Sequence record: PV419677.1
Direction: 5' to 3' (one strand)
Length of the DNA: 64,000 nt
Source of the DNA: a phage
Part shown: positions 2,825 to 14,803 of the stretch, piece by piece
Layout of the letters: each line of letters opens with the position of its first letter
How positions within the stretch are numbered: the stretch's first letter is position 1
Position numbers and translations under genes: made by a program
Notes under the pieces: model-generated
What the model was told of the DNA's origin: nothing
Database searches by the model: none
The model's input: only the letters and a program-made list of their open reading frames with translations

Positions 2825-3571
2825 TTAACCTCTAATCAGTTTAAAAATTGACGCGTTCAAAGGCAGACCACGTTTCAGTTTTAATTTACCAATAAAACCA
2901 ATCTTCTCAAAACGCTCAAGACCTTGAATGATTTTATCATAGCAATCAAAAAGCGTTTCAGCATTAGTTAATTTCTTGGTAACTTTCCAGTCATTACCTT
3001 TGAGCAAGACGTTCAATTTAGTAAGCTCATGACCTTCCGCAATACGGGAACCATCAATGCGAGCCTTCAGAGCAACCATTTTTAATTGGTTTTCTTTGGA
3101 CTGCTCTGATTTACTCATTTGAGCATAATGCTTAACGCGATTCTCACGTTTGTGTTGGATGTTCTTGATATGGGTATATGACTTTTTAATCTGTTCCCAT
3201 TTCTCTGCAGACAGATTTAACTTTTCAATCTTCTTGACAGATGGACGAGCAATTTTTACAGCAACATCATCACGACGTTGTTTAAGCTCATCCAGGGACC
3301 AATCAGAACGCATAGTGTTGTATTTCTTTTTAACAGGAATAACATTACCTTTGATATAACCAATGTCATTGTTAAAACGCTCTAATGATAGCTTCTCACC
3401 TTCAATAGAGTTATTAAATGTTTCACCAGAATAAGCACAAACTTTTTGGTCAAGAATGTTAACCAGGTAATTGAAATCCAGGTTAAAGTCCTTGCCACGA
3501 CGTTTAGCAGAAGCTTGAGTGTGTTCCAGGCGACGTTTAACTTTCAGCGTTTTGGTTTTTGATAAAGTCAT
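2825..3571 (-). CDS. hypothetical early protein at the T4 srd position
   Basis: 248 aa basic protein between dda and modA; identity to Srd inferred from position and size only. Confidence 0.4.
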   Translation of the reverse strand: MTLSKTKTLKVKRRLEHTQASAKRRGKDFNLDFNYLVNILDQKVCAYSGETFNNSIEGEKLSLERFNNDIGYIKGNVIPVKKKYNTMRSDWSLDELKQRRDDVAVKIARPSVKKIEKLNLSAEKWEQIKKSYTHIKNIQHKRENRVKHYAQMSKSEQSKENQLKMVALKARIDGSRIAEGHELTKLNVLLKGNDWKVTKKLTNAETLFDCYDKIIQGLERFEKIGFIGKLKLKRGLPLNASIFKLIRG

Positions 3572-3611
3572 GATATTTTTCTCATCTTACGGACGATTTG
3601 GTAACTCAGTA

Positions 3612-3655
3612 TGGATTCATTATACACCATCCATTAGGTGTGTACACTACTTTTT
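3612..3655 (-). promoter_or_regulatory. T4-type early promoter upstream of the srd-position gene
   Basis: minus strand AAAAAGTAGTGTACA-N16-TATAAT then GAATCCATACTGAGTTACC leader. Confidence 0.55.
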
Positions 3656-3706
3656 CGCCTTTAACGCTTTTATTTTTACTGTGTATAATGGTTCTAAGGT
3701 CTTTGG

Positions 3707-4321
3707 TTAGTTCAAAACAGTCAAATGCCAAACAGTATACAGGTTATTCAATGGGTGTGTTTCAATCAAGTCTACGCGGAGCGTAGTCCCAGCGGGAAAC
3801 ATAAACTCATCTTCATCATTAACCAGGTGCAAGTTTGACTTCCTGGTTGCTTCTGGATATGCACCATTGAACTCTTCAGGAGGAGCACCACAAATCATTT
3901 TGAAGATTGCTTCCTGATAGTTATACGCATATGGTGCATTGTTTATGCAGAAAATATTCCTTGTTCCATAGAAACTGTATGATGCGAAATTTCTTGCAAC
4001 CTGCCAGTCCCTGGAAAAACTCATTACACGATTGAATTCAATTGTTGCCCCAACATATCTTAAATCTTCCAGGTATTCCATAGTTTTCTTTGATATACCA
4101 CGGAACAACGCCGCTGGCGGGGCAGTATTCAGATTGTTGCGGATAATCCTGGACAAGTCTTCTTGAATCAGGTCAGGTTTATTTTCCATACACTGCCAGA
4201 GTACTGATTGCTCATTATCTGTATAAAGAGCATCAATCTCCGCTTGACATTGGTTACGAAAAGACTCACTAGAAGCGGCGGTGTCAATAATTCCATTCAA
4301 AACGTCATCAGTGTATAGCAT
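3707..4321 (-). CDS. modA: ADP-ribosyltransferase, ModA-like
   Basis: R-S-E signature (LFRG, SFS, EDEFMFP); about 204 aa after trimming start to ATG at 4319-4321 with SD; position as T4 modA. Confidence 0.65.
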   Translation of the reverse strand: MLYTDDVLNGIIDTAASSESFRNQCQAEIDALYTDNEQSVLWQCMENKPDLIQEDLSRIIRNNLNTAPPAALFRGISKKTMEYLEDLRYVGATIEFNRVMSFSRDWQVARNFASYSFYGTRNIFCINNAPYAYNYQEAIFKMICGAPPEEFNGAYPEATRKSNLHLVNDEDEFMFPAGTTLRVDLIETHPLNNLYTVWHLTVLN

Positions 4322-4352
4322 TTTATTATCCTCATCAGTAGTTGATAGGAAC

Positions 4353-4385
4353 ATCTTAACGTGTCTTATTGTTCTTGTACACAGT
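4353..4385 (-). promoter_or_regulatory. early promoter-like element upstream of modA
   Basis: TGTACA -35, 17-nt spacer, weaker -10 TAAGAT, then conserved CTATCAACTACTGATGAGG leader. Confidence 0.35.
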
Positions 4386-4926
4386 CAAGAACATAATAAT
4401 CATCAATAAATCCAGCATCAACTACCACGAATTTCTGGTCAACTGGAACAAACCATTCAAGCTCGGAATCAATCATGTCCATGTATTCTTCACGCCTTAA
4501 TGTAGCTGCCCGGTCGGAACCAGAAGCTGTATTGAAGAATTCAAGTGGAACATCAAGTGCGATTTTGCGCATCGCATCATGGTAACAAAAAGCTTTGGTC
4601 TGATTCAATCTGACGATAGTCCTAGTCACATATTCCATTGCAGCAAAATCCCTGGCAATACCATAGTCTTCTGTAAAGGAGGTTATCCGTCCAAATTCAA
4701 AAGGTTGCATTGATTCTTTTGCTTCATCTAACAAATCAATCTCTTGCTGGGTTACTCCGCGCCACAAGACTGTATCGGGTATAGACAACCTTGACTTGAT
4801 GATTGAGTTGACATTTGAATGCAAGGTCTTATCAACCTTTGATGTGCGGCATTCAAATAATGAAGCTATCTCCATTTCACTAAATTTTAACTGGTTGGGT
4901 TCGGTATCAGATTTGATGATGTTCAT
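4366..4926 (-). CDS. modB: ADP-ribosyltransferase, ModB-like
   Basis: 186 aa, similar architecture to the adjacent ModA-like gene (LWRG, SFTEDYGIARDF, acidic C-terminal E-x-E region). Confidence 0.6.
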   Translation of the reverse strand: MNIIKSDTEPNQLKFSEMEIASLFECRTSKVDKTLHSNVNSIIKSRLSIPDTVLWRGVTQQEIDLLDEAKESMQPFEFGRITSFTEDYGIARDFAAMEYVTRTIVRLNQTKAFCYHDAMRKIALDVPLEFFNTASGSDRAATLRREEYMDMIDSELEWFVPVDQKFVVVDAGFIDDYYVLDCVQEQ

Positions 4927-4982
4927 AATGGTCTCTCTGTTGTAAGAAAGACCATTATGACATTAGGAGGGGAGTAAGTAAA

Positions 4983-5252
4983 CTACTTAAATACTCCAAG
5001 TGGAACGCCAAAGACTGCAATGTCTACGGCCATACCAATCGGAGATTGATATGATGGAGATTGATATGATGAGTAAGAACTTTTCGATTTTATCGGGGTT
5101 TCGACTTTAATTGTCTCGGATTCAGTCTTAAGCCTTTGTAAACGATTAATTTTTTGTTGCTCGATTTCCTTATGAGCATGTTTACGGTCGATATCCAGCG
5201 CCGATGTGGGAATATTTGTTAACCAGTTCATTGTTTCACCCATGGTGCCCAT
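4983..5252 (-). CDS. hypothetical protein with Ser/Tyr-rich repeat
   Basis: 89 aa; contains SYQSPSYQSP encoded by an exact 15-bp tandem duplication at 5041-5070. Confidence 0.45.
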   Translation of the reverse strand: MGTMGETMNWLTNIPTSALDIDRKHAHKEIEQQKINRLQRLKTESETIKVETPIKSKSSYSSYQSPSYQSPIGMAVDIAVFGVPLGVFK

Positions 5253-5406
5253 GGAGGTGGGTCGTCGTAATATGAGGCCAGGTCGCGTAGAACTTCCAAG
5301 GGGAGGCTAAAACCGTGCTTCTGTATAATCGCATCAAGTTCGTCAACTAGGTCCACACGGGCTTCCGTAGGAGCTTTAGGCTCTTCAAAAAGTTCAAATA
5401 AATCCA

Positions 5407-7113: not shown

Positions 7114-7632
7114 TTAATAACCCCGGTCCTGACGAGCGAAGTTTTCAGCATTTTTCAGGTAATACAGTTTAAAGATTTCTTCTGCTGACAGACCAAGACC
7201 ATGGAACATGTTCAGAACAAAGTGCAGGATGTCAATCATCTCAAATTTAATTTCGAGCTGGTCTTCAGGAGACAACTCATCAATACGACGATTACGGAAT
7301 TCAGCATGTTGGGCTTTCCACGGTTTCCAACAACTTGAGGCTGCTTTCTCGCCATTAGACATACCCCCGAGAGAAGTCAGAAGTTCACGGAATTCATCAT
7401 CGACATAATCTTTCTGGTTGCGAAGCCATGCAACAACATCACCTGCAGTAGCCAATTCATCTGGATGTGAGTTATATTCAGGTTTTTCGGTAGCCAGACG
7501 AACTTGCAATGATTTCTGCATATCAAGCATAATCTGCAGCGGGTCAATACCTTTTGTAATTGCATTGTCATAAGCCAGAGCAGCTTTATCAACGCCAGCA
7601 ATCAGTTGTGAACATTCATTAAAATGAGCCAT
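7114..7632 (-). CDS. 56: dCTP pyrophosphatase gp56 (MazG-like)
   Basis: MAHFNEC start at ATG 7630-7632 with AAGGA SD; about 172 aa; position next to soc. Confidence 0.75.
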   Translation of the reverse strand: MAHFNECSQLIAGVDKAALAYDNAITKGIDPLQIMLDMQKSLQVRLATEKPEYNSHPDELATAGDVVAWLRNQKDYVDDEFRELLTSLGGMSNGEKAASSCWKPWKAQHAEFRNRRIDELSPEDQLEIKFEMIDILHFVLNMFHGLGLSAEEIFKLYYLKNAENFARQDRGY

Positions 7633-7671
7633 TATATTTTTCCTTATCAATTCATGTTATTTTGTATGTTA

Positions 7672-7697
7672 ATTATATCATATTGGTTTGAAGCATA
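7672..7697 (-). promoter_or_regulatory. putative MotA-dependent middle promoter upstream of gene 56
   Basis: minus strand TTATGCTTCAAA (MotA-box-like TGCTTCA) 11 nt upstream of TATAAT. Confidence 0.45.
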
Positions 7698-7717
7698 AAT
7701 ACACGGAAGGGGGATAT

Positions 7718-8033: not shown

Positions 8034-9062
8034 CTAAACTTTTGCGTACTTCGAAAGTCGCATTCTCGCCATCAACCCTTGAGCAACGTTATCGGCCATA
8101 TATGATTCGATTTGTTCAGGGGTTGCGCCCTCCGATTTAACCATCTCATTTATGTCTTTCGTATGCCATGGTGCATTGTCCCAGAACATAACGGCTTCAC
8201 CCGCTTCAACGAGCTTCTTCATACGTTTAATCGTATCCGGATGTCTTGGCTCGTTGTCCATTACCCATACTCGGGTTTCAGCATAAGGAACGGCTTCCAA
8301 TGCTAATGTTCCACCAGTTATCGCAATGCTGTTAGGGATAAACAAACTATCAATCGGACCTTCCATTACCCACACGCGCTTGCGCTCATCAATCTTGTCT
8401 ACGCCATAGACTTTGGAAGCTTCTGGGTGAGCTTTGATTGTGATATATTTTTGTGGTGCATCTTTGCGAAGAGCTCGTCCTTGGAAAGATTCGATTTCTT
8501 TTTTGCCGTTGAAGATAGGAATAACCAAGCGTGGTTCATTCGTTTCATTCTTATACGTCCCAGGATTAACGGAGTTAACTAATGCAGGCCATTTGTTTGT
8601 AAACCATAACCGGTTCCAAACATTGCTCGGAATACACCGACTTTTTACATACTTAACTATCGGATGCTCTTCTGGTAAAGTATCAATTCTTTCACAAAAA
8701 GCAAGCTCTTCAATAACCGGAGTTTTTTCTGGTTCTTTCGGAGCTTCTGCAACTTCATTACGTTGTCGACCGAAGGCATTCTCCTTATACTTCTCAACCA
8801 TATATTCCCGGTGCAAATCCGGCTCAAACTCTTTTATGTATTTGCTTATATGCGTGGAGTAGTCACAGTTAAAACATTTCACGTAAACCGCACCATCAGA
8901 CGGATTGGTATACGCCCAGAATCGAGCCTTGTGCGAATCTTTCTGGGAGTCACCACAAACCTTGCAACGACAGTTTGCCTTAAATGTGCTCCCGGTGACT
9001 TCTCTATAACGTGGTTGATACGATAAAGCTCTGACTGCAAATTCTCTATCAATATATGACAT
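8034..9062 (-). CDS. 61: DNA primase gp61
   Basis: 342 aa; N-terminal zinc ribbon CKVCGDS...CFNC, TOPRIM-like core; size as T4 gp61. Confidence 0.9.
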   Translation of the reverse strand: MSYIDREFAVRALSYQPRYREVTGSTFKANCRCKVCGDSQKDSHKARFWAYTNPSDGAVYVKCFNCDYSTHISKYIKEFEPDLHREYMVEKYKENAFGRQRNEVAEAPKEPEKTPVIEELAFCERIDTLPEEHPIVKYVKSRCIPSNVWNRLWFTNKWPALVNSVNPGTYKNETNEPRLVIPIFNGKKEIESFQGRALRKDAPQKYITIKAHPEASKVYGVDKIDERKRVWVMEGPIDSLFIPNSIAITGGTLALEAVPYAETRVWVMDNEPRHPDTIKRMKKLVEAGEAVMFWDNAPWHTKDINEMVKSEGATPEQIESYMADNVAQGLMARMRLSKYAKV

Positions 9063-9474: not shown

Positions 9475-9843
9475 TTAACCTCGCTTCATGAAAGCATTAA
9501 AAATCTGGTCATCAATATCAGTAGGCGGTTCTTGAGATTTAACCCAGCCAGCATCCAGAATGTCATTTGCTTCAGTAGATAGCATGACCCCAATTTCAGG
9601 ATTTCCGGTTATCCACGCTGCACAATCGCGTACATTCTTTTTATCAAATGGATAGCCACGAGTATCTTCATAAGGCCCATTCATTACCATAAATGAGCGA
9701 GCCTTTATGATAACGCCATCTTTAACAATAATATAACCAATCGCCTGATTATAACGAGGCTCGCGGAATTCATAATGAGCATTACCATCATTATTTTTAA
9801 CTAATTCAAAATTCAGATAAGACAAATCGCTTTGAATATACAT
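9475..9843 (-). CDS. hypothetical protein, paralog A
   Basis: 122 aa; C-terminus DDQIFNAFMKRG shared with next gene. Confidence 0.55.
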   Translation of the reverse strand: MYIQSDLSYLNFELVKNNDGNAHYEFREPRYNQAIGYIIVKDGVIIKARSFMVMNGPYEDTRGYPFDKKNVRDCAAWITGNPEIGVMLSTEANDILDAGWVKSQEPPTDIDDQIFNAFMKRG

Positions 9844-9844
9844 A

Positions 9845-10282
9845 TTAATCTCGCTTCATAAAGGCATTAAAAATTTGGTCGTCAACTGAATATACAGGGG
9901 TTTCCAGAAGTTTCAAAAGACTGTTTTTAATGTACTTACCCGGGATACCCATATTAACAATACTGTCATTCAATTCATTGTTAGGATTGATGTCTTTAAA
10001 TTCAAACCCATCAAATTCAACCTTGTCAGGAATACCATCAGCGAAAAAATAAACCAATTGGTGCATTGTATTGCATGAAAATAATTTAGACTTGACTGCA
10101 ATAAGTTCTTGCCAATGGTTTAATTCTTTGTTAAGAAGCTTATGAGCAAACGTAATTCTATCATCACTATCAACAAGAAAATAACCCAGGTATTGAATTT
10201 CGTCGCTCCAAAACACCCGGTATGCCTGTGCATTTGGATTTTTACAGCGAAGTTTTTTGATAACTAAATTTCTGTTAATCAT
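9845..10282 (-). CDS. hypothetical protein, paralog B
   Basis: start trimmed to ATG 10280-10282; C-terminus DDQIFNAFMKRD. Confidence 0.55.
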   Translation of the reverse strand: MINRNLVIKKLRCKNPNAQAYRVFWSDEIQYLGYFLVDSDDRITFAHKLLNKELNHWQELIAVKSKLFSCNTMHQLVYFFADGIPDKVEFDGFEFKDINPNNELNDSIVNMGIPGKYIKNSLLKLLETPVYSVDDQIFNAFMKRD

Positions 10283-10283
10283 T

Positions 10284-10577
10284 TTATTCACCTGTAACCC
10301 ATTGAACAATTTTGCTATTGTCAAATGAAGCATCGCAATACAGAACATAGTTATACTGCATAACGTCACCAGAAGTCAATTGGTCAGATACTTCTTTAAC
10401 CATATCAGGGTGGTCACGTTTAGTTATGTTCATGATATCAGCATAAATCTGATGTTCAACATCAGTCTGGTCGGCAGTCATAGACCACTCACAAAGGTCT
10501 TTATCAAGTCCAGCAGTAACTGGAGCTGTACCACATGATGCTACGGTAAGAATTGCCGCGATTAATAACTTTTTCAT
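10284..10577 (-). CDS. putative lipoprotein
   Basis: 97 aa; signal peptide with lipobox-like TVASCG. Confidence 0.55.
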   Translation of the reverse strand: MKKLLIAAILTVASCGTAPVTAGLDKDLCEWSMTADQTDVEHQIYADIMNITKRDHPDMVKEVSDQLTSGDVMQYNYVLYCDASFDNSKIVQWVTGE

Positions 10578-10580
10578 TTC

Positions 10581-10640
10581 AATCTCCTCAGTAGTTGATA
10601 GGGATAATATACAGCATTACCCCTTTGTTGTACACTATTT
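10581..10640 (-). promoter_or_regulatory. T4-type early promoter with conserved leader
   Basis: AAAATAGTGTACAA ... TATATTATCCCTATCAACTACTGAGGAG. Confidence 0.45.
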
Positions 10641-10874
10641 TAATGCATCTTCCAGATAAATTTTGCGGAATTTGCGTTTTGTCTGACGAATCTGACGCTT
10701 GGTAGGTTTCACAGGAAATTCGAAGAACTCTACGTATTCTTGTTCATAATCATTGTGGCCGACTGAAAGAACTAGTTCCCAGCTGCTTACGGTGCGTTGG
10801 ATAAACATATTATGCTTACCAAAAGATTTATTCCAAAAAGAACTAGGGGTAGGTTTCATTAATGTGATATTCAT
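10635..10874 (-). CDS. hypothetical protein
   Basis: 79 aa; C-terminal PTKRQIRQTKRKFRKIY motif, also seen in 35232-35465. Confidence 0.45.
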   Translation of the reverse strand: MNITLMKPTPSSFWNKSFGKHNMFIQRTVSSWELVLSVGHNDYEQEYVEFFEFPVKPTKRQIRQTKRKFRKIYLEDALK

Positions 10875-11081
10875 TTAAATTTCCTCAATGCGGCGGGCAT
10901 CATATTCAAAAACTTTATTGTCATTAACAAAGGCTTTAACCAGCGCATTATTCACTTCTGCATACTGCACTGTAACCCATTCAATCATATTTTGGTCACT
11001 AACATCCAGCGCGGTTTCTTTGGTAAACATATTACCATTTTCAAACCAACCAATAAATACTACGTTTTCTAATTTATACAT
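10875..11081 (-). CDS. dmd: Dmd-like small protein (possible antitoxin against RnlA/LsoA-type toxins)
   Basis: 68 aa; VVFIGWF...MFTKE...YAEVNNALVKAF resembles remembered T4 Dmd (gene 61.5); lies in the 61.x cluster. Confidence 0.45.
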   Translation of the reverse strand: MYKLENVVFIGWFENGNMFTKETALDVSDQNMIEWVTVQYAEVNNALVKAFVNDNKVFEYDARRIEEI

Positions 11082-11399
11082 TTAGATTTCCTCGCAGAAG
11101 GCCCAGGCAGCGTGATAAACTGTTGCGCCTTTAGTATCATTTAAACAAACCACGTCAACCGGTGCAATCACACGATAAAGACGGGGTTCTCCTCCATATG
11201 AGCGGGCTGCTCTTCCTGCATAGATACGGGCCAAACCAATATCTTCAGTAAAAAACACACGCCCTAAATTTTTCTTGCGCCCAACTTCTGACAGAACACC
11301 AGTTGCATCAGGAGGGCAAAGCATATTTTGGATTCCAGCATTAGAGCTTGAGCCATGATAATAAACTTTGTATTCCGCCTTGCAATCAATAGTTTTCAT
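11082..11399 (-). CDS. small protein with PARP-like H-G-S motif
   Basis: 105 aa; VYYHGSSSNAGIQNML and GRVFFTED resemble the PARP/H-Y-E ART motifs HGS...AGIL and GKGIYFAD. Confidence 0.35.
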   Translation of the reverse strand: MKTIDCKAEYKVYYHGSSSNAGIQNMLCPPDATGVLSEVGRKKNLGRVFFTEDIGLARIYAGRAARSYGGEPRLYRVIAPVDVVCLNDTKGATVYHAAWAFCEEI

Positions 11400-11438
11400 T
11401 TTATTCTCCAGTAGTTGATAGAGTCATTATAACATAAG

Positions 11439-11460
11439 AAAAAGGGGCTGTAAGCCCCTT
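11439..11460 (-). terminator. intrinsic terminator hairpin
   Basis: minus strand GGGGC-TTACA-GCCCC followed by TTTTT. Confidence 0.55.
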
Positions 11461-11467
11461 TGTTCAC

Positions 11468-11770
11468 TTACGCCAACTCATAGTTGTGCATAGTCAGACA
11501 ACGAATTTTCCCAGTAGTTGGGTGCATAACAGTCACACTAATTGTGTAATCATCACACACGTTAACAAAAGGTTCAGCGATAACATATACTGCCCCACCC
11601 GCCAACAGGTATTCACGAAGAGAGCTGCGAACAGATGAAGGTTGAACATCGCTTTTGAGCTTTATTAATTTACCAGTTTGAATGCCTGATGCGATAAGAG
11701 CAGCACAGTTTTCATCACGGCGAGCGAATTGTCCAAAATAGTAACGATTCATGTCGGTTTGATTAAACAT
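11468..11770 (-). CDS. hypothetical protein
   Basis: 100 aa ORF downstream of gene 41. Confidence 0.5.
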   Translation of the reverse strand: MFNQTDMNRYYFGQFARRDENCAALIASGIQTGKLIKLKSDVQPSSVRSSLREYLLAGGAVYVIAEPFVNVCDDYTISVTVMHPTTGKIRCLTMHNYELA

Positions 11771-11819
11771 ATGGTTTTCCTTTTAACAGTTGGTTTATTG
11801 TGTAACTCAGTATGGAATC

Positions 11820-11856
11820 ATTATGTCCTAAGACAAGGGGCTTGTACACCCCTTTT
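11820..11856 (-). promoter_or_regulatory. T4-type early promoter
   Basis: GGTGTACAA -35, 17-nt spacer, CATAAT -10, then GATTCCATACTGAGTTAC leader. Confidence 0.5.
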
Positions 11857-11866
11857 TAAAAATATT

Positions 11867-13306
11867 TTAAAATTTCATTTGAGCAGCAAGGTCATCCAGG
11901 TCGCTCCTGTTGACCCTGGTTTGTCGATTCATTTCGGCCTGGCGATTCATCTCACCGGTGGCTTCTTTAACCGTAGGGCCTTGTTTAGGAGCCGAATCAT
12001 CATCAACCTCATACCAGCGCTGATTACCTTTCTTAACACCCATCTTGAATTTATTATAGTAGTTCTTATCACCATAACGAGACTTAAGCTGTTTGATTAA
12101 CTGCAGCCCCATTTGAGCGAATTCTTCGGTCTCAACAACACCCAACATAAAGTCAGCCGTGTGAGCAATACCAAAGGATTCTGCAATGTCAGCCATATCA
12201 ATCTCGGCTGCAACGTTAGCGCCCCTGGTTGTCTGCGCTGCAGTCCACAAGACCACATTTTTCTCAACTGCCAACCCACGAAGTTCTTCTGCAACCATCT
12301 TAATCAGACCGTAACTGTTTTCGGTAAACGTTTTCAGTCTTGAGCTTGCACAGATTGCCAGGTAGTCAACAATAATCACATCCGGTACAAACCCTTGCTT
12401 CAGTTTGTATTCGTTCAGTAATGCACGGAAAGTATCCGCATGAGCACCACCAGTTGGATATTGTTTTATCTTCAGAGTCCCAAGAGTCCCGGAAGCACGC
12501 CATTTTTCCATCTTAGCTTTATATTCTGCCCATGATATATGACCTTCATCAATATCATCCAGAGACACATCCAGCAAGTTGGCATCAATACGTTTGGCAC
12601 ATACTTCTTCGGCCATTTCCATGCTTATATAAAGAACGTTATGACCAGTCTGAAGATAGTCAGCCGCTAACGAACAAAGTCCTAGAGATTTCCCGACGTT
12701 TGTCCCGGCCAGTAAAACGTTCTCTGTACCATACTCAACTCCACCCTTCGTGATTTTATTCAGGATGTTAATGCGGAACGGAACCTTTTTCGATTTGTTC
12801 AGATAAGTCTGGAATCGAGCTTCGTAATCGTTTAACCAGTCATGGCCCAGGGCAGAGTCAAAACAGATAGATAATGCATCACGCATGATATCAGGGATAG
12901 CACCAATATCCGGGATTCGTTTATCACGTTTATCTTTCGGAAGTTCGGCATTGCTCTGGATTTCGATAATCCTGGATGTAGCATTGAACATCGCAGACTT
13001 CTGTACATACTTCTCGGTTTCTCTAACCAACCATTCCTGGTCTTCTGGAGTATCGGCCAAGACTCCTAAGAGTTTCTTGGTGCCTTCATATTCAACTTCA
13101 GAAAGGTCAGAACTGTCGAGCGCGATATCAAGTGCAGTCTTAGTTGGCACCGCCTGATATTCTTTTACGTGTTCGTTAATCGTATTAAAAAGGGTCTTCG
13201 CTGGACCCTTTTCAAAATATGTGCTATTCAGATATGGCCAGACTTTAACAAAATATTCCTTGTTAAAGAGCAGCTGGGATAAAATAGTTTCTACCACTTC
13301 CACCAC
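11867..13306 (-). CDS. 41: replicative DNA helicase gp41 (DnaB-like)
   Basis: 479 aa; Walker A GTNVGKS; colinear with remembered T4 gp41. Confidence 0.9.
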   Translation of the reverse strand: MVEVVETILSQLLFNKEYFVKVWPYLNSTYFEKGPAKTLFNTINEHVKEYQAVPTKTALDIALDSSDLSEVEYEGTKKLLGVLADTPEDQEWLVRETEKYVQKSAMFNATSRIIEIQSNAELPKDKRDKRIPDIGAIPDIMRDALSICFDSALGHDWLNDYEARFQTYLNKSKKVPFRINILNKITKGGVEYGTENVLLAGTNVGKSLGLCSLAADYLQTGHNVLYISMEMAEEVCAKRIDANLLDVSLDDIDEGHISWAEYKAKMEKWRASGTLGTLKIKQYPTGGAHADTFRALLNEYKLKQGFVPDVIIVDYLAICASSRLKTFTENSYGLIKMVAEELRGLAVEKNVVLWTAAQTTRGANVAAEIDMADIAESFGIAHTADFMLGVVETEEFAQMGLQLIKQLKSRYGDKNYYNKFKMGVKKGNQRWYEVDDDSAPKQGPTVKEATGEMNRQAEMNRQTRVNRSDLDDLAAQMKF

Positions 13307-13635
13307 CTCTTTTTCATTTTAATCTTATCAATTTCATCTTGTATTTGCATTGTAACACACTTTTCTACATGCACTGCAAGCTCCGCTTTGCGGTCTTCAG
13401 AAGGGGTGCCGAAATCAACTGAAACTTTTCCCGATGGTTCAATTTTAATTCCGGTTACGTACACAATGTGATTGGACCCATCAGGGAGTGATAACAGAAT
13501 TTCCTGCCGTACAGTTCCCATGGATTGCCGGATAATCTCCAAACTTTTTTCGTAGTAAGGTACAGAAGGAGCCTTAGCTCCCTCCGCATCTTTCTCGAAA
13601 TTATCTAAATCAGATAAATCGATATCATTCATCAA
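13291..13635 (-). CDS. hypothetical protein at the gene 40 position
   Basis: 114 aa between uvsX and 41; called by position only. Confidence 0.4.
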   Translation of the reverse strand: MMNDIDLSDLDNFEKDAEGAKAPSVPYYEKSLEIIRQSMGTVRQEILLSLPDGSNHIVYVTGIKIEPSGKVSVDFGTPSEDRKAELAVHVEKCVTMQIQDEIDKIKMKKRWWKW

Positions 13636-14803
13636 GGTCTTCCATCATATCTAAATCGTTTTCGATATCTGCCGCAGATGGTTTTGCCTTACCTTCGGGA
13701 GCAGAGTATTTTTCAACCTTGGAGGCAATAAGCGCATCAACCTCGGCGTCAACAACAGCATTGCTATCGATTGCACCCAGCTGGTAATGTCGTTTGATTG
13801 CATCACGGAAAGGTTCGTGCTTGAACAACGGACCCCAGAATTCGGTACAGTTAGTATCTTTTGCACGCCATGATTTTTCTTCGCGGACCATTTCACCGGT
13901 CTCAACATCAAGATATTCACGGTTATACCAACCAACTTTCGGTTTCACCACAAATCCGATTTCCATTGCCATATCAAGCAGGCCAGAATACGGGTCAATA
14001 CCCCCATCGAATTTTACATCAATGAAGAATTTACTTTTCTCTTTGACCATACGAGATTTTTCGGCGTTCAGAACAAATTGGAAACCTTCAAGTTCTTTAC
14101 CGGTTTCTTTAATCTGGCGTTTGCCGATAATGAATACGGTGTCCGCAGAATACATAACACCTGTACCACCGGTCATAACGGTTTTGCTGTACATCTCAAT
14201 CGTCTCGATTGTATGGTTAACCGCGACACAAGGAATATCCTTGATACTAAAATATGGGGTAACAATACGGAACAGAGATTTCAGGGATTTAGCACGAGTC
14301 ATATCACCAACGACTTTTTCGTTCATCGCATCTTCTGTTTCTTTTTTCGACGCCATGTTACCGATTGAGTCAATAAAGATAATGACTTTTTCACCGCGCT
14401 CAATTGCTTCAAGCTGGTTAACCATATCAACTTTCAATTGTTCAACCGACTGGATTGGTGTGTGGATAACACGCTCCGGGTCTACTTTCATTGCACGCAG
14501 ATAGGCCTCTGTGATACCAAATTCTGAATCGTAGAACAAACAGATTGCGTCGGGGTATTTGTTCATATATGCAGAGACCATCGTTAAACCCATATTGGAT
14601 TTAAAGTGTTTTGACGGACCAGCAAAAATAGTCAAACCTGACTGCATACCACCATCTAGTGCACCGCTGATTGCAATGTTCAGCATCGGGATTTTTGTAC
14701 GAACTACATCTTTATCATTAAAGAACTTGGACTTGGTAAGAGTCGCGGTCATTTTGGATGTAGAAGCTTTAATCAAACGGGATTTCAAATCTGCAATAGA
14801 CAT
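13625..14803 (-). CDS. uvsX: UvsX recombinase (RecA-like)
   Basis: 392 aa; near-colinear with remembered T4 UvsX (KSRLIKASTSK, GPSKxFKSN). Confidence 0.9.
   Translation of the reverse strand: MSIADLKSRLIKASTSKMTATLTKSKFFNDKDVVRTKIPMLNIAISGALDGGMQSGLTIFAGPSKHFKSNMGLTMVSAYMNKYPDAICLFYDSEFGITEAYLRAMKVDPERVIHTPIQSVEQLKVDMVNQLEAIERGEKVIIFIDSIGNMASKKETEDAMNEKVVGDMTRAKSLKSLFRIVTPYFSIKDIPCVAVNHTIETIEMYSKTVMTGGTGVMYSADTVFIIGKRQIKETGKELEGFQFVLNAEKSRMVKEKSKFFIDVKFDGGIDPYSGLLDMAMEIGFVVKPKVGWYNREYLDVETGEMVREEKSWRAKDTNCTEFWGPLFKHEPFRDAIKRHYQLGAIDSNAVVDAEVDALIASKVEKYSAPEGKAKPSAADIENDLDMMEDLDE

Follow-up and report, generated by a model that had tools for sequence, protein, structure and literature searches.

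The window analysed here is a 64,000-nucleotide stretch of the phage sequence PV419677.1, a T4-like phage (Straboviridae, Tevenvirinae, Gaprivervirus), and our subject is a pair of adjoining open reading frames (ORFs) located between helicase gene 41 and primase gene 61, where every gene lies on the minus strand. Both ORFs are found where the first-pass annotation, which worked from the letters alone, had placed them (10875–11081, 68 amino acids; 11082–11399, 105 amino acids; both minus strand). The shorter one is an orthologue of the T4 antitoxin gene dmd. The longer one appears, from its sequence relationships and a structural model, to be a complete, free-standing ADP-ribosyltransferase (ART) domain of the Arr clade, corresponding to the Arr core without its C-terminal helices; that this predicted mono-ART is expressed early together with dmd and acts as a host-takeover or counter-defence effector is, in our estimation, somewhat more probable than any outcome to the contrary. 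The two genes and the one that follows them are arranged as listed here, the longer ORF being called the ART gene for short:

11082–11399, minus strand: 105-amino-acid ART ORF (PHROG 2110), with a GGAG Shine-Dalgarno sequence 8 nt before its ATG
10875–11081, minus strand: dmd (gene 61.5 orthologue), 68 amino acids, with Pfam, PHROG, PDB and BLASTP matches
10635–10874, minus strand: 61.4-like ORF (DUF7279), third gene of the close-packed ART-dmd-61.4 unit

The 105-amino-acid protein matches PHROG 2110 ('unknown function') with E=1.3e-58 and has 121 close homologues, nearly all of 95–112 amino acids. By tblastn, the gene is present in 610 phage records (216 Escherichia, 116 Klebsiella, 68 Acinetobacter, 62 Aeromonas, and others including Vibrio), only 17 of which fall below 60% identity and nearly all of which are annotated 'hypothetical protein'. 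Its distribution in Straboviridae is wide. Depositors labelled two of the 121 close homologues 'ADP-ribosyl transferase', and some GenBank records name the orthologue 'rifampin ADP-ribosyl transferase'; the family is already recognised as a putative ART by a few depositors and otherwise carries the 'unknown function' label of PHROG 2110. The notion of a chance ORF or a motif coincidence, instead of a functional gene, could draw only on the absence of direct curated-database matches and is refuted by conservation: the PHROG match, the 121 homologues and 610 phage records, the strong conservation, a confidently predicted fold, and the Shine-Dalgarno and promoter-like elements in front of the gene reduce its probability to a negligible level.

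A profile of the wider family, built from 38 diverse members, retrieved Arr from the PDB by sequence in an hmmsearch (Arr-ms, 2HW2/9IAF, E=4e-4; Arr-2, E=0.012). When the wider family was compared by hhalign with the Arr-ms and Arr-2 sequences taken from the PDB, it aligned at 96.5% probability in local mode (E=7e-10) and at 96.1% in global mode, with query positions 10–105 lying on Arr-ms 14–111; this profile-profile homology covers the ART core, including the E-x-G-R motif and Ala57 of Arr. An AlphaFold2 model of the 105-amino-acid protein, built on 37 homologues, adopts the ART fold with a predicted local distance difference test score (pLDDT) of 87.2 and a predicted template modelling score (pTM) of 0.78, which is the outcome of a check that had been named beforehand for 11082–11399. 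Foldseek searches of the PDB with this model ranked Arr first (9iaf, 2hw2; probability 1.00, template modelling (TM) score 0.55–0.61) and KptA next, with TreX, TreTu, PARPs and DarT further down. Among the viral structures of BFVD, the third hit, and the first non-orthologous one, was a 94-amino-acid protein annotated as rifampin ADP-ribosyl transferase (TM score 0.73–0.81). Taken together, ART homology and fold are very probable. The PARP-like H-Y-E motifs that the first-pass annotation had perceived in this protein proved to be real in the sense that they belong to an ART fold of the H-Y-[E/D] clade (PARP/diphtheria toxin/Arr). Both peptides it had quoted are present, VYYHGSSSNAGIQNML as residues 12–27 and GRVFFTED as residues 46–53; YHGS in the former is the strand-1 H-G-[ST] motif, and VFFT in the latter corresponds to the Arr strand with the triad Tyr, which is a Phe in the phage protein.

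Arr (Arr-ms 2HW2/9IAF, Arr-2 9IBA, PF12120) is closest to the 105-amino-acid protein by sequence profile as well as by Foldseek and has the same small ART core. Common to both are the H-G-[ST] strand, E-x-G-R in the D-loop, an aromatic residue at Arr Tyr49 and an Ala at Arr Ala57, whereas the phage protein has an invariant Phe for Tyr49, lacks a fixed equivalent of Asp84 and carries a two-residue insertion in the D-loop (KK-NL). Of the Arr catalytic motif H19-Y49-D84, only the His is kept, Tyr being exchanged for Phe and D84 lying opposite L86. The phage protein ends opposite Arr-ms ~111, so that the C-terminal helical third of Arr (Arr-ms ~111–143) has no equivalent in it, and it gave no match to Pfam Arr-ms (PF12120) even at E<=1. 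These differences bear on the idea of a genuine Arr-type resistance enzyme that would ADP-ribosylate a rifamycin-like molecule and thereby protect host transcription during infection. Such a role would be in line with the ranking of Arr in the profile and Foldseek searches and with the names given to some GenBank orthologues, and Arr-family genes in actinophages have been interpreted as rifamycin-type protection of host transcription (PMC9503650). Nevertheless, we regard it as very improbable: apart from the missing C-terminal third, the unconserved Asp84 and the lacking Pfam match, Arr is a resistance gene while the present gene is an early gene of phages with enteric or aquatic Gram-negative hosts, for which rifamycin exposure is an unlikely selective force within the short T4-like cycle.

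KptA as the second fold match raises the possibility of a Tpt1/KptA-type enzyme directed at nucleic acids, one that would remove or modify an RNA 2'-phosphate in an NAD+-dependent (nicotinamide adenine dinucleotide-dependent) manner, or act on another RNA or DNA group, in the service of RNA repair or of protection against RNases. Consistent with this idea are the basic and invariant GRKKNL of the D-loop, the predicted isoelectric point of 8.4, the position next to dmd, whose product is an anti-RNase factor, a distance of ~1.4 kb to RNA ligase 2 in a Klebsiella phage, and the fusion of some relatives to 2H phosphoesterase or NUDIX domains, which process ADP-ribose (ADPR) derivatives in KptA pathways (PMC9503650). 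However, against four Tpt1 NAD lobes (three from the PDB plus the E. coli KptA sequence) the wider family reached an hhalign probability of only 14%, compared with 96% for Arr, and the neighbourhood links are not conserved. Moreover, the two-lobe architecture of Tpt1/KptA (9LD3, 7KW9, 6E3A) is not present, as the 105-amino-acid protein is a single domain of ~95 amino acids that corresponds to the NAD lobe only, with no counterpart of the N-terminal RNA lobe. All but one residue of the catalytic Arg-His-Arg-Arg tetrad resides in the latter. We have rejected membership in Tpt1 on account of the 14% hhalign value and the missing lobe, and consider an enzyme of this type improbable.

Several other ART groups were compared as well. 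The T-even enzymes Alt, ModA and ModB act on host proteins, and all three are much larger than the 105-amino-acid protein. The latter falls on the H-Y-[ED] side of the ART superfamily and has neither sequence similarity to them nor a counterpart in T4, whereas Alt, ModA and ModB are R-S-E-clade ARTs (PMC5512222). AcrIF11 (6KYF), an anti-CRISPR ART of phages and plasmids, was not matched in the PDB by either profile, and its target and host range are unrelated. ART-PolyVal (PF18760, Tox-ART-HYD2 clade) comes nearer in context, since the same kind of giant proteins, and sometimes the same polypeptide, carry domains of the 105-amino-acid type, and the function predicted for it, that of an injected enzyme which modifies the host, is shared (PMC5512222). 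The two are nevertheless separate families: where they co-occur (P0132, P0156), the domain of the present type occupies another region and matches Arr-ms, not PF18760; the 105-amino-acid protein itself has no match to PF18760, and T4-like phages encode it as an early gene by itself, not as a portion of a virion protein. The profile comparisons thus clearly point to a position in the ART superfamily next to Arr and outside Arr sensu stricto, Tpt1 and ART-PolyVal. There was also no sequence match of the 105-amino-acid protein to DarT, AdfA (PF23813) or NADAR. A mimic of a defence-system ART was considered as a further candidate and rejected after a PADLOC scan of 38 family members that returned no match to any defence-system protein.

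The first-pass annotation had judged the 105-amino-acid protein too short for a full catalytic domain, a view that its relatives contradict. Searching 1.84 billion representative proteins with a profile of the T4-like clade yielded 246 relatives, among which the whole profile (positions ~10–104) recurs as one block, in N-terminal, internal or C-terminal position, in proteins of 205–3924 amino acids. In a Pfam scan of 53 multidomain relatives, 31 matched Arr-ms on this same block (best E=1.8e-9), and many solo relatives likewise match Pfam Arr-ms. Because the whole profile recurs as one block within polyvalent and virion proteins, the unit of ~95 residues is a complete and portable domain; it is autonomous and spans the Arr ART core (Arr-ms 14–111), and a precedent for its size is TreTu, a solved ART toxin of 113 amino acids. 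Partner domains in the 53 multidomain relatives comprise ART-PolyVal (8 cases), NUDIX (3), DUF7178 (3), GNAT, Toprim, LPD23, ddrB-ParB and CHAP. Such partners are typical of polyvalent effectors that are injected; for the polyvalent proteins of phages and conjugative elements, entry into the recipient cell along with the DNA has been predicted (PMC5512222). Two fusions are of particular note. P0153 (954 amino acids) consists of a lambda-type portal followed by the ART module and a 2H/Acb1-like phosphoesterase domain, and P0135 (3924 amino acids) holds the module at residues 592–697 inside a tape-measure protein; as far as domain order can tell, both imply virion delivery of the ART module in other phages. 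As a side observation, DUF7178 recurs with the module: it is fused to it in three polyvalent proteins (including P0137 and P0145) and forms a separate gene (7117–7710) ~1.8 kb downstream of an ART relative in the phage contig L014, which makes it a possible functional partner by sequence context.

Three segments of the protein bear on the question of catalysis:

11349–11360, minus strand: Y14-H15-G16-S17, strand-1 H-G-[ST] NAD-binding motif, from alignment to Arr-ms H19-G20-T21
11262–11318, minus strand: D-loop equivalent, residues 28–46 (Arr-ms V32–H46), LPPxxTGxxSExGRKKNL
11217–11258, minus strand: V48-F49-F50-T51 strand and the following helix, with F49, A57 and Y60

Conservation was assessed in a broad set of 98 diverse relatives and in 117 T4-like sequences. 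In both, H15, G16, E38, F49, A57 and Y60 are invariant or nearly so, and all of these except Y60 map onto Arr residues, namely H19, G20, E40, Y49 and A57. The strand-1 motif is present throughout the broad set, with H15 and G16 invariant and position 17 being Ser or Thr in 98 of 98 relatives. The D-loop, LPPxxTGxxSExGRKKNL, is the most conserved segment of the family; its GRKKNL portion is basic and invariant, and its E38-x-G-R41 is shared with Arr (FE40AGR43 in Arr-ms, FEDGR in Arr-2), whose loop V32–H46 has been equated with the PARP D-loop (bioRxiv 10.1101/2025.02.20.639278). The same study describes G20, Y49 and A57 of Arr at the NAD pocket and notes that Ala57 stands at the floor of the nicotinamide pocket, where a Ser is usual; A57 of the phage protein aligns to this residue. 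Y60, an invariant Tyr 11 residues after F49 on the helix, has no counterpart in Arr, where the position is Gly60. By these alignments, the NAD-pocket residue set of Arr is strictly conserved in the family, and catalytic activity of the 105-amino-acid protein can be predicted with modest confidence.

A number of observations weigh against an enzyme of the Arr clade that acts in counter-defence, and they deserve to be set out together. The residue opposite the Arr triad Tyr49 is F49, and Phe occupies this position in 96 of 98 relatives. Arr Asp84 lies at the edge of an alignment gap, where the phage protein has L86, a hydrophobic strand position, and although an acid is found within positions 82–85 in 79 of 98 sequences of the broad set (81%) and in 107 of 117 of the T4-like set (91%), its column is not fixed. 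In the model, residues 31–40 of the D-loop are less confident (pLDDT 69). Direct searches with the 105-amino-acid protein gave nothing in Pfam (E<=1), NCBIfam (E<=10) or the PDB sequences (E<=10); the profile of the T4-like clade alone had no match in the PDB either, and the wider family profile was needed to reach Arr. Aligned with Arr by hhalign, this clade alone attained a probability of 31%, which explains the lack of a direct Pfam match. We found no paper that describes, characterises or tests the family. Finally, its gene neighbours differ by phage genus, and the association with anti-defence genes may be only co-location in hyperplastic early regions.

The first two of these points lead to the main competing idea, that of a non-catalytic binder with an ART fold, which would bind or soak up NAD+, ADP-ribose or immune signals derived from ADPR, or would act as a decoy or inhibitor of a host ART such as DarT. 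The variable column of the putative catalytic acid keeps this idea alive, and the Phe in place of the triad Tyr, the absence of a fixed Asp84 counterpart and the very small size of the protein would be in keeping with it, as would a relative in the metagenomic contig L008 with NADAR nearby and an Acb2/Tad1-like sponge gene two genes upstream. On the other hand, F49 and the missing Asp are family-wide traits that extend to modules in polyvalent effectors placed alongside other enzymes, H-G-[ST], A57 and Y60 do not vary, as would be anticipated if the NAD site works, and the PADLOC scan disclosed no similarity to defence-system proteins. Free NAD+ is, moreover, probably too abundant in cells to be sponged up by a small early protein. 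The first-pass annotation had raised the possibility of a decoy or inhibitor. For the decoy and anti-DarT ideas we obtained no support, and we rate a non-catalytic binder as unlikely. Candidates for the catalytic acid other than the residues at 82–85 are the invariant E38 and the clade-specific E103; within the T4-like clade, acids occur at D82 in 99, at D88 in 85 and at the near-invariant E103 in 115 of the 117 sequences.

The gene downstream of the ART gene presents no such difficulties. The 68-amino-acid ORF matches Pfam Dmd (PF17587) with E=1.3e-20 (73.9 bits, cut-off 27), PHROG 2102 with E=5.5e-33, and solved Dmd chains (5i8j_A, E=1e-21; T4 Dmd 5hy3_B, E=6e-17), and it is 57% identical to T4 Dmd in BLASTP (E=3e-23), which bears out the resemblance noted in the first reading. 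Its synteny is also that of dmd: as with T4 Dmd (gp61.5, 5HY3_B), 61.4 and sp follow it within the interval from gene 41 to gene 61, but its product is eight residues longer and the gene directly before it is the ART gene, not gene 41. By homology, it is an ordinary Dmd orthologue, an antitoxin-like inhibitor of RnlA/LsoA, and this part of the work amounts to routine annotation.

Signals that may govern expression of the two genes were located upstream of the ART gene:

11441–11461, minus strand: terminator-like hairpin, AAAGGGGCTTACAGCCCCTTT followed by a T-run, with a 9-pair stem including 5 GC pairs; closes the unit of the upstream 100-amino-acid ORF
11426–11454, minus strand: match to a sigma-70/T4-early-like promoter (CTTACA, 17-nt spacer, TG-TATAAT; 10/12), a consensus match only

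The promoter match is the best of the region, ends 27 nt upstream of the ART ATG and overlaps the hairpin. Downstream, the genes are packed without any gap, the TAA of the ART gene abutting the ATG of dmd and the TAA of dmd abutting that of the 61.4-like ORF. Abutting codons and promoter match together suggest an early ART-dmd-61.4 transcription unit. The ART/dmd (11076–11092) and dmd/61.4 (10870–10886) junctions consist of the same string of 15–16 nt, GAGGAAAT[CT]TAAATG on the minus strand, and in both the Shine-Dalgarno sequence lies inside the upstream ORF; this string may serve both as a signal for translational coupling and as a junction for recombination or gene cassettes.

Comparison of eleven gene contexts, seven of them from metagenomic phage contigs, did not reveal a constant neighbour of the ART gene (immunity, antitoxin or ADPR hydrolase). 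The absence of a consistent cognate hydrolase or immunity gene fits an enzyme of a lytic phage that is aimed at the host, not a self-limiting toxin. Among the phage lineages sampled, only those of Escherichia and Shigella phages have dmd adjacent to it. In Acinetobacter phage Konradin, where dmd is not annotated, the ART gene is surrounded by small ORFs close to 61.1; it is found in Aeromonas phage 65 between tk and tk.4 (the latter recently named AdfM; bioRxiv 10.1101/2025.11.20.689424), in a Klebsiella Slopekvirus ~1.4 kb from genes for an HNH endonuclease and RNA ligase 2, and in a Vibrio phage in yet another location. The contig L008, a metagenomic T4-like sequence of 110 kb, harbours an ART relative in a run of small early genes (2980–5354), two genes downstream of the Acb2/Tad1-like (Tad1-hairpin) gene and near NADAR (AdfN-like), with an RNA ligase downstream; by gene content this segment looks like an anti-defence island. 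Anti-defence neighbours are thus recurrent, though not obligate, with Dmd in the window, NADAR and the Acb2/Tad1-like gene in L008, and the tk.4 region in phage 65.

Returning to the Arr-clade ART domain as the preferred interpretation, we envisage that NAD+ would be bound via H15-G16-S17, F49, A57 and Y60, that the conserved basic D-loop (SExGRKKNL) might engage the acceptor, and that, early in infection, a host macromolecule would receive a single ADP-ribose. With the C-terminal third of Arr absent, rifamycins are improbable as acceptors. The resulting role would be that of a host-takeover or counter-defence effector, and elsewhere, in conjugative elements and other phages, polyvalent virion proteins would bring the finished module into the cell. 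Phage ARTs acting against host defence have precedents in AcrIF11 (PMC12421852) and in T4 Alt, which counteracts Mokosh (bioRxiv 10.1101/2025.11.20.689424), and a counter-defence role specifically is a tentative proposal. A bolder version of this scheme assumes a minimal ART with the non-canonical set His15/Phe49/Tyr60, in which Glu38 of the D-loop would provide the acid in place of strand 5, and which would disable a host immunity protein or RNA. Co-transcribed with Dmd, it could form an anti-toxin cassette with a stoichiometric and a catalytic component, and it would also be the warhead of many injected polyvalent proteins; in this extended form, the scheme is rather doubtful. If active, the 105-amino-acid protein would be among the smallest known ART domains and would represent a fourth, unrelated ART class in T-even-type phages besides Alt, ModA and ModB. 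Hundreds of phages that infect E. coli, Klebsiella, Acinetobacter and Aeromonas and are candidates for therapy carry the gene, and the module is reused in injected polyvalent proteins; once the acceptor is known, a new mechanism of host takeover or anti-defence might come to light, as might the way in which an ART functions when the canonical strand-5 acid is lacking. We see it as a good experimental lead rather than a surprise.

The remaining genes of the locus complete the picture. Positions 10600–11900 are 97.1% identical to Escherichia phage MN01 over their full length; SP18 and VR20 share ~97% identity with this stretch across about three quarters of it. Around the ART-dmd-61.4 unit, the genes are arranged as follows:

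13625–14803, minus strand: uvsX, first in transcription order
13291–13635, minus strand: gene 40-like ORF, second in transcription order
11867–13306, minus strand: helicase gene 41, third in transcription order
11468–11770, minus strand: 100-amino-acid ORF (PHROG 17014), between gene 41 and the ART gene
10284–10577, minus strand: spackle (sp), downstream of the 61.4-like ORF
9845–10282 and 9475–9843, minus strand: two ORFs in the slot of gene 61.2 (PHROGs 8539 and 4122)
8034–9062, minus strand: primase gene 61, separated from the 61.2 slot by two small ORFs

In T4, as the comparison of the loci showed, dmd directly follows gene 41. Because T4 gene 41 directly precedes dmd, the 100- and 105-amino-acid ORFs are extra relative to T4. 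The alignment with T4 products that the first reading had proposed consequently has two sides: the dmd ORF aligns with its T4 counterpart as described above, whereas the 105-amino-acid ORF has none at all in T4. The 100-amino-acid ORF, for which there was no match in Pfam or NCBIfam, is an independent indel, as it is missing from phage pEC-M719-6WT.2, which is closely related to the phage studied here and in which the order gene 41-ART-dmd is kept, as well as from T4.

The first-pass annotation had also mentioned an anti-DarT factor in the T4 61.x region. This is correct for T4, where AdfA is gp61.2, but in the window the slot of AdfA holds two unrelated ORFs on the minus strand, 9475–9843 and 9845–10282, which share with AdfA only its C-terminal tail of ~13 residues, [SI][VI]DDQIFNAFM[KN]R[GD]. 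In BLASTP, the likeness extends over the last 13–32 residues (E=9e-6 and 4e-5), and the Pfam AdfA match in this slot is limited to residues 109–122 and stays below threshold. A C-terminal peptide shared by otherwise different 61.2-slot proteins suggests, at the level of sequence, a docking or recognition tag. One of the two appeared in the ORF list as a GTG-started ORF of 174 amino acids (9845–10369, minus strand), which would extend into the 3' end of spackle; judging by the MN01 annotation and a PHROG 8539 match that begins at residue 30, its true start is the internal ATG at 10282, giving a protein of 145 amino acids.

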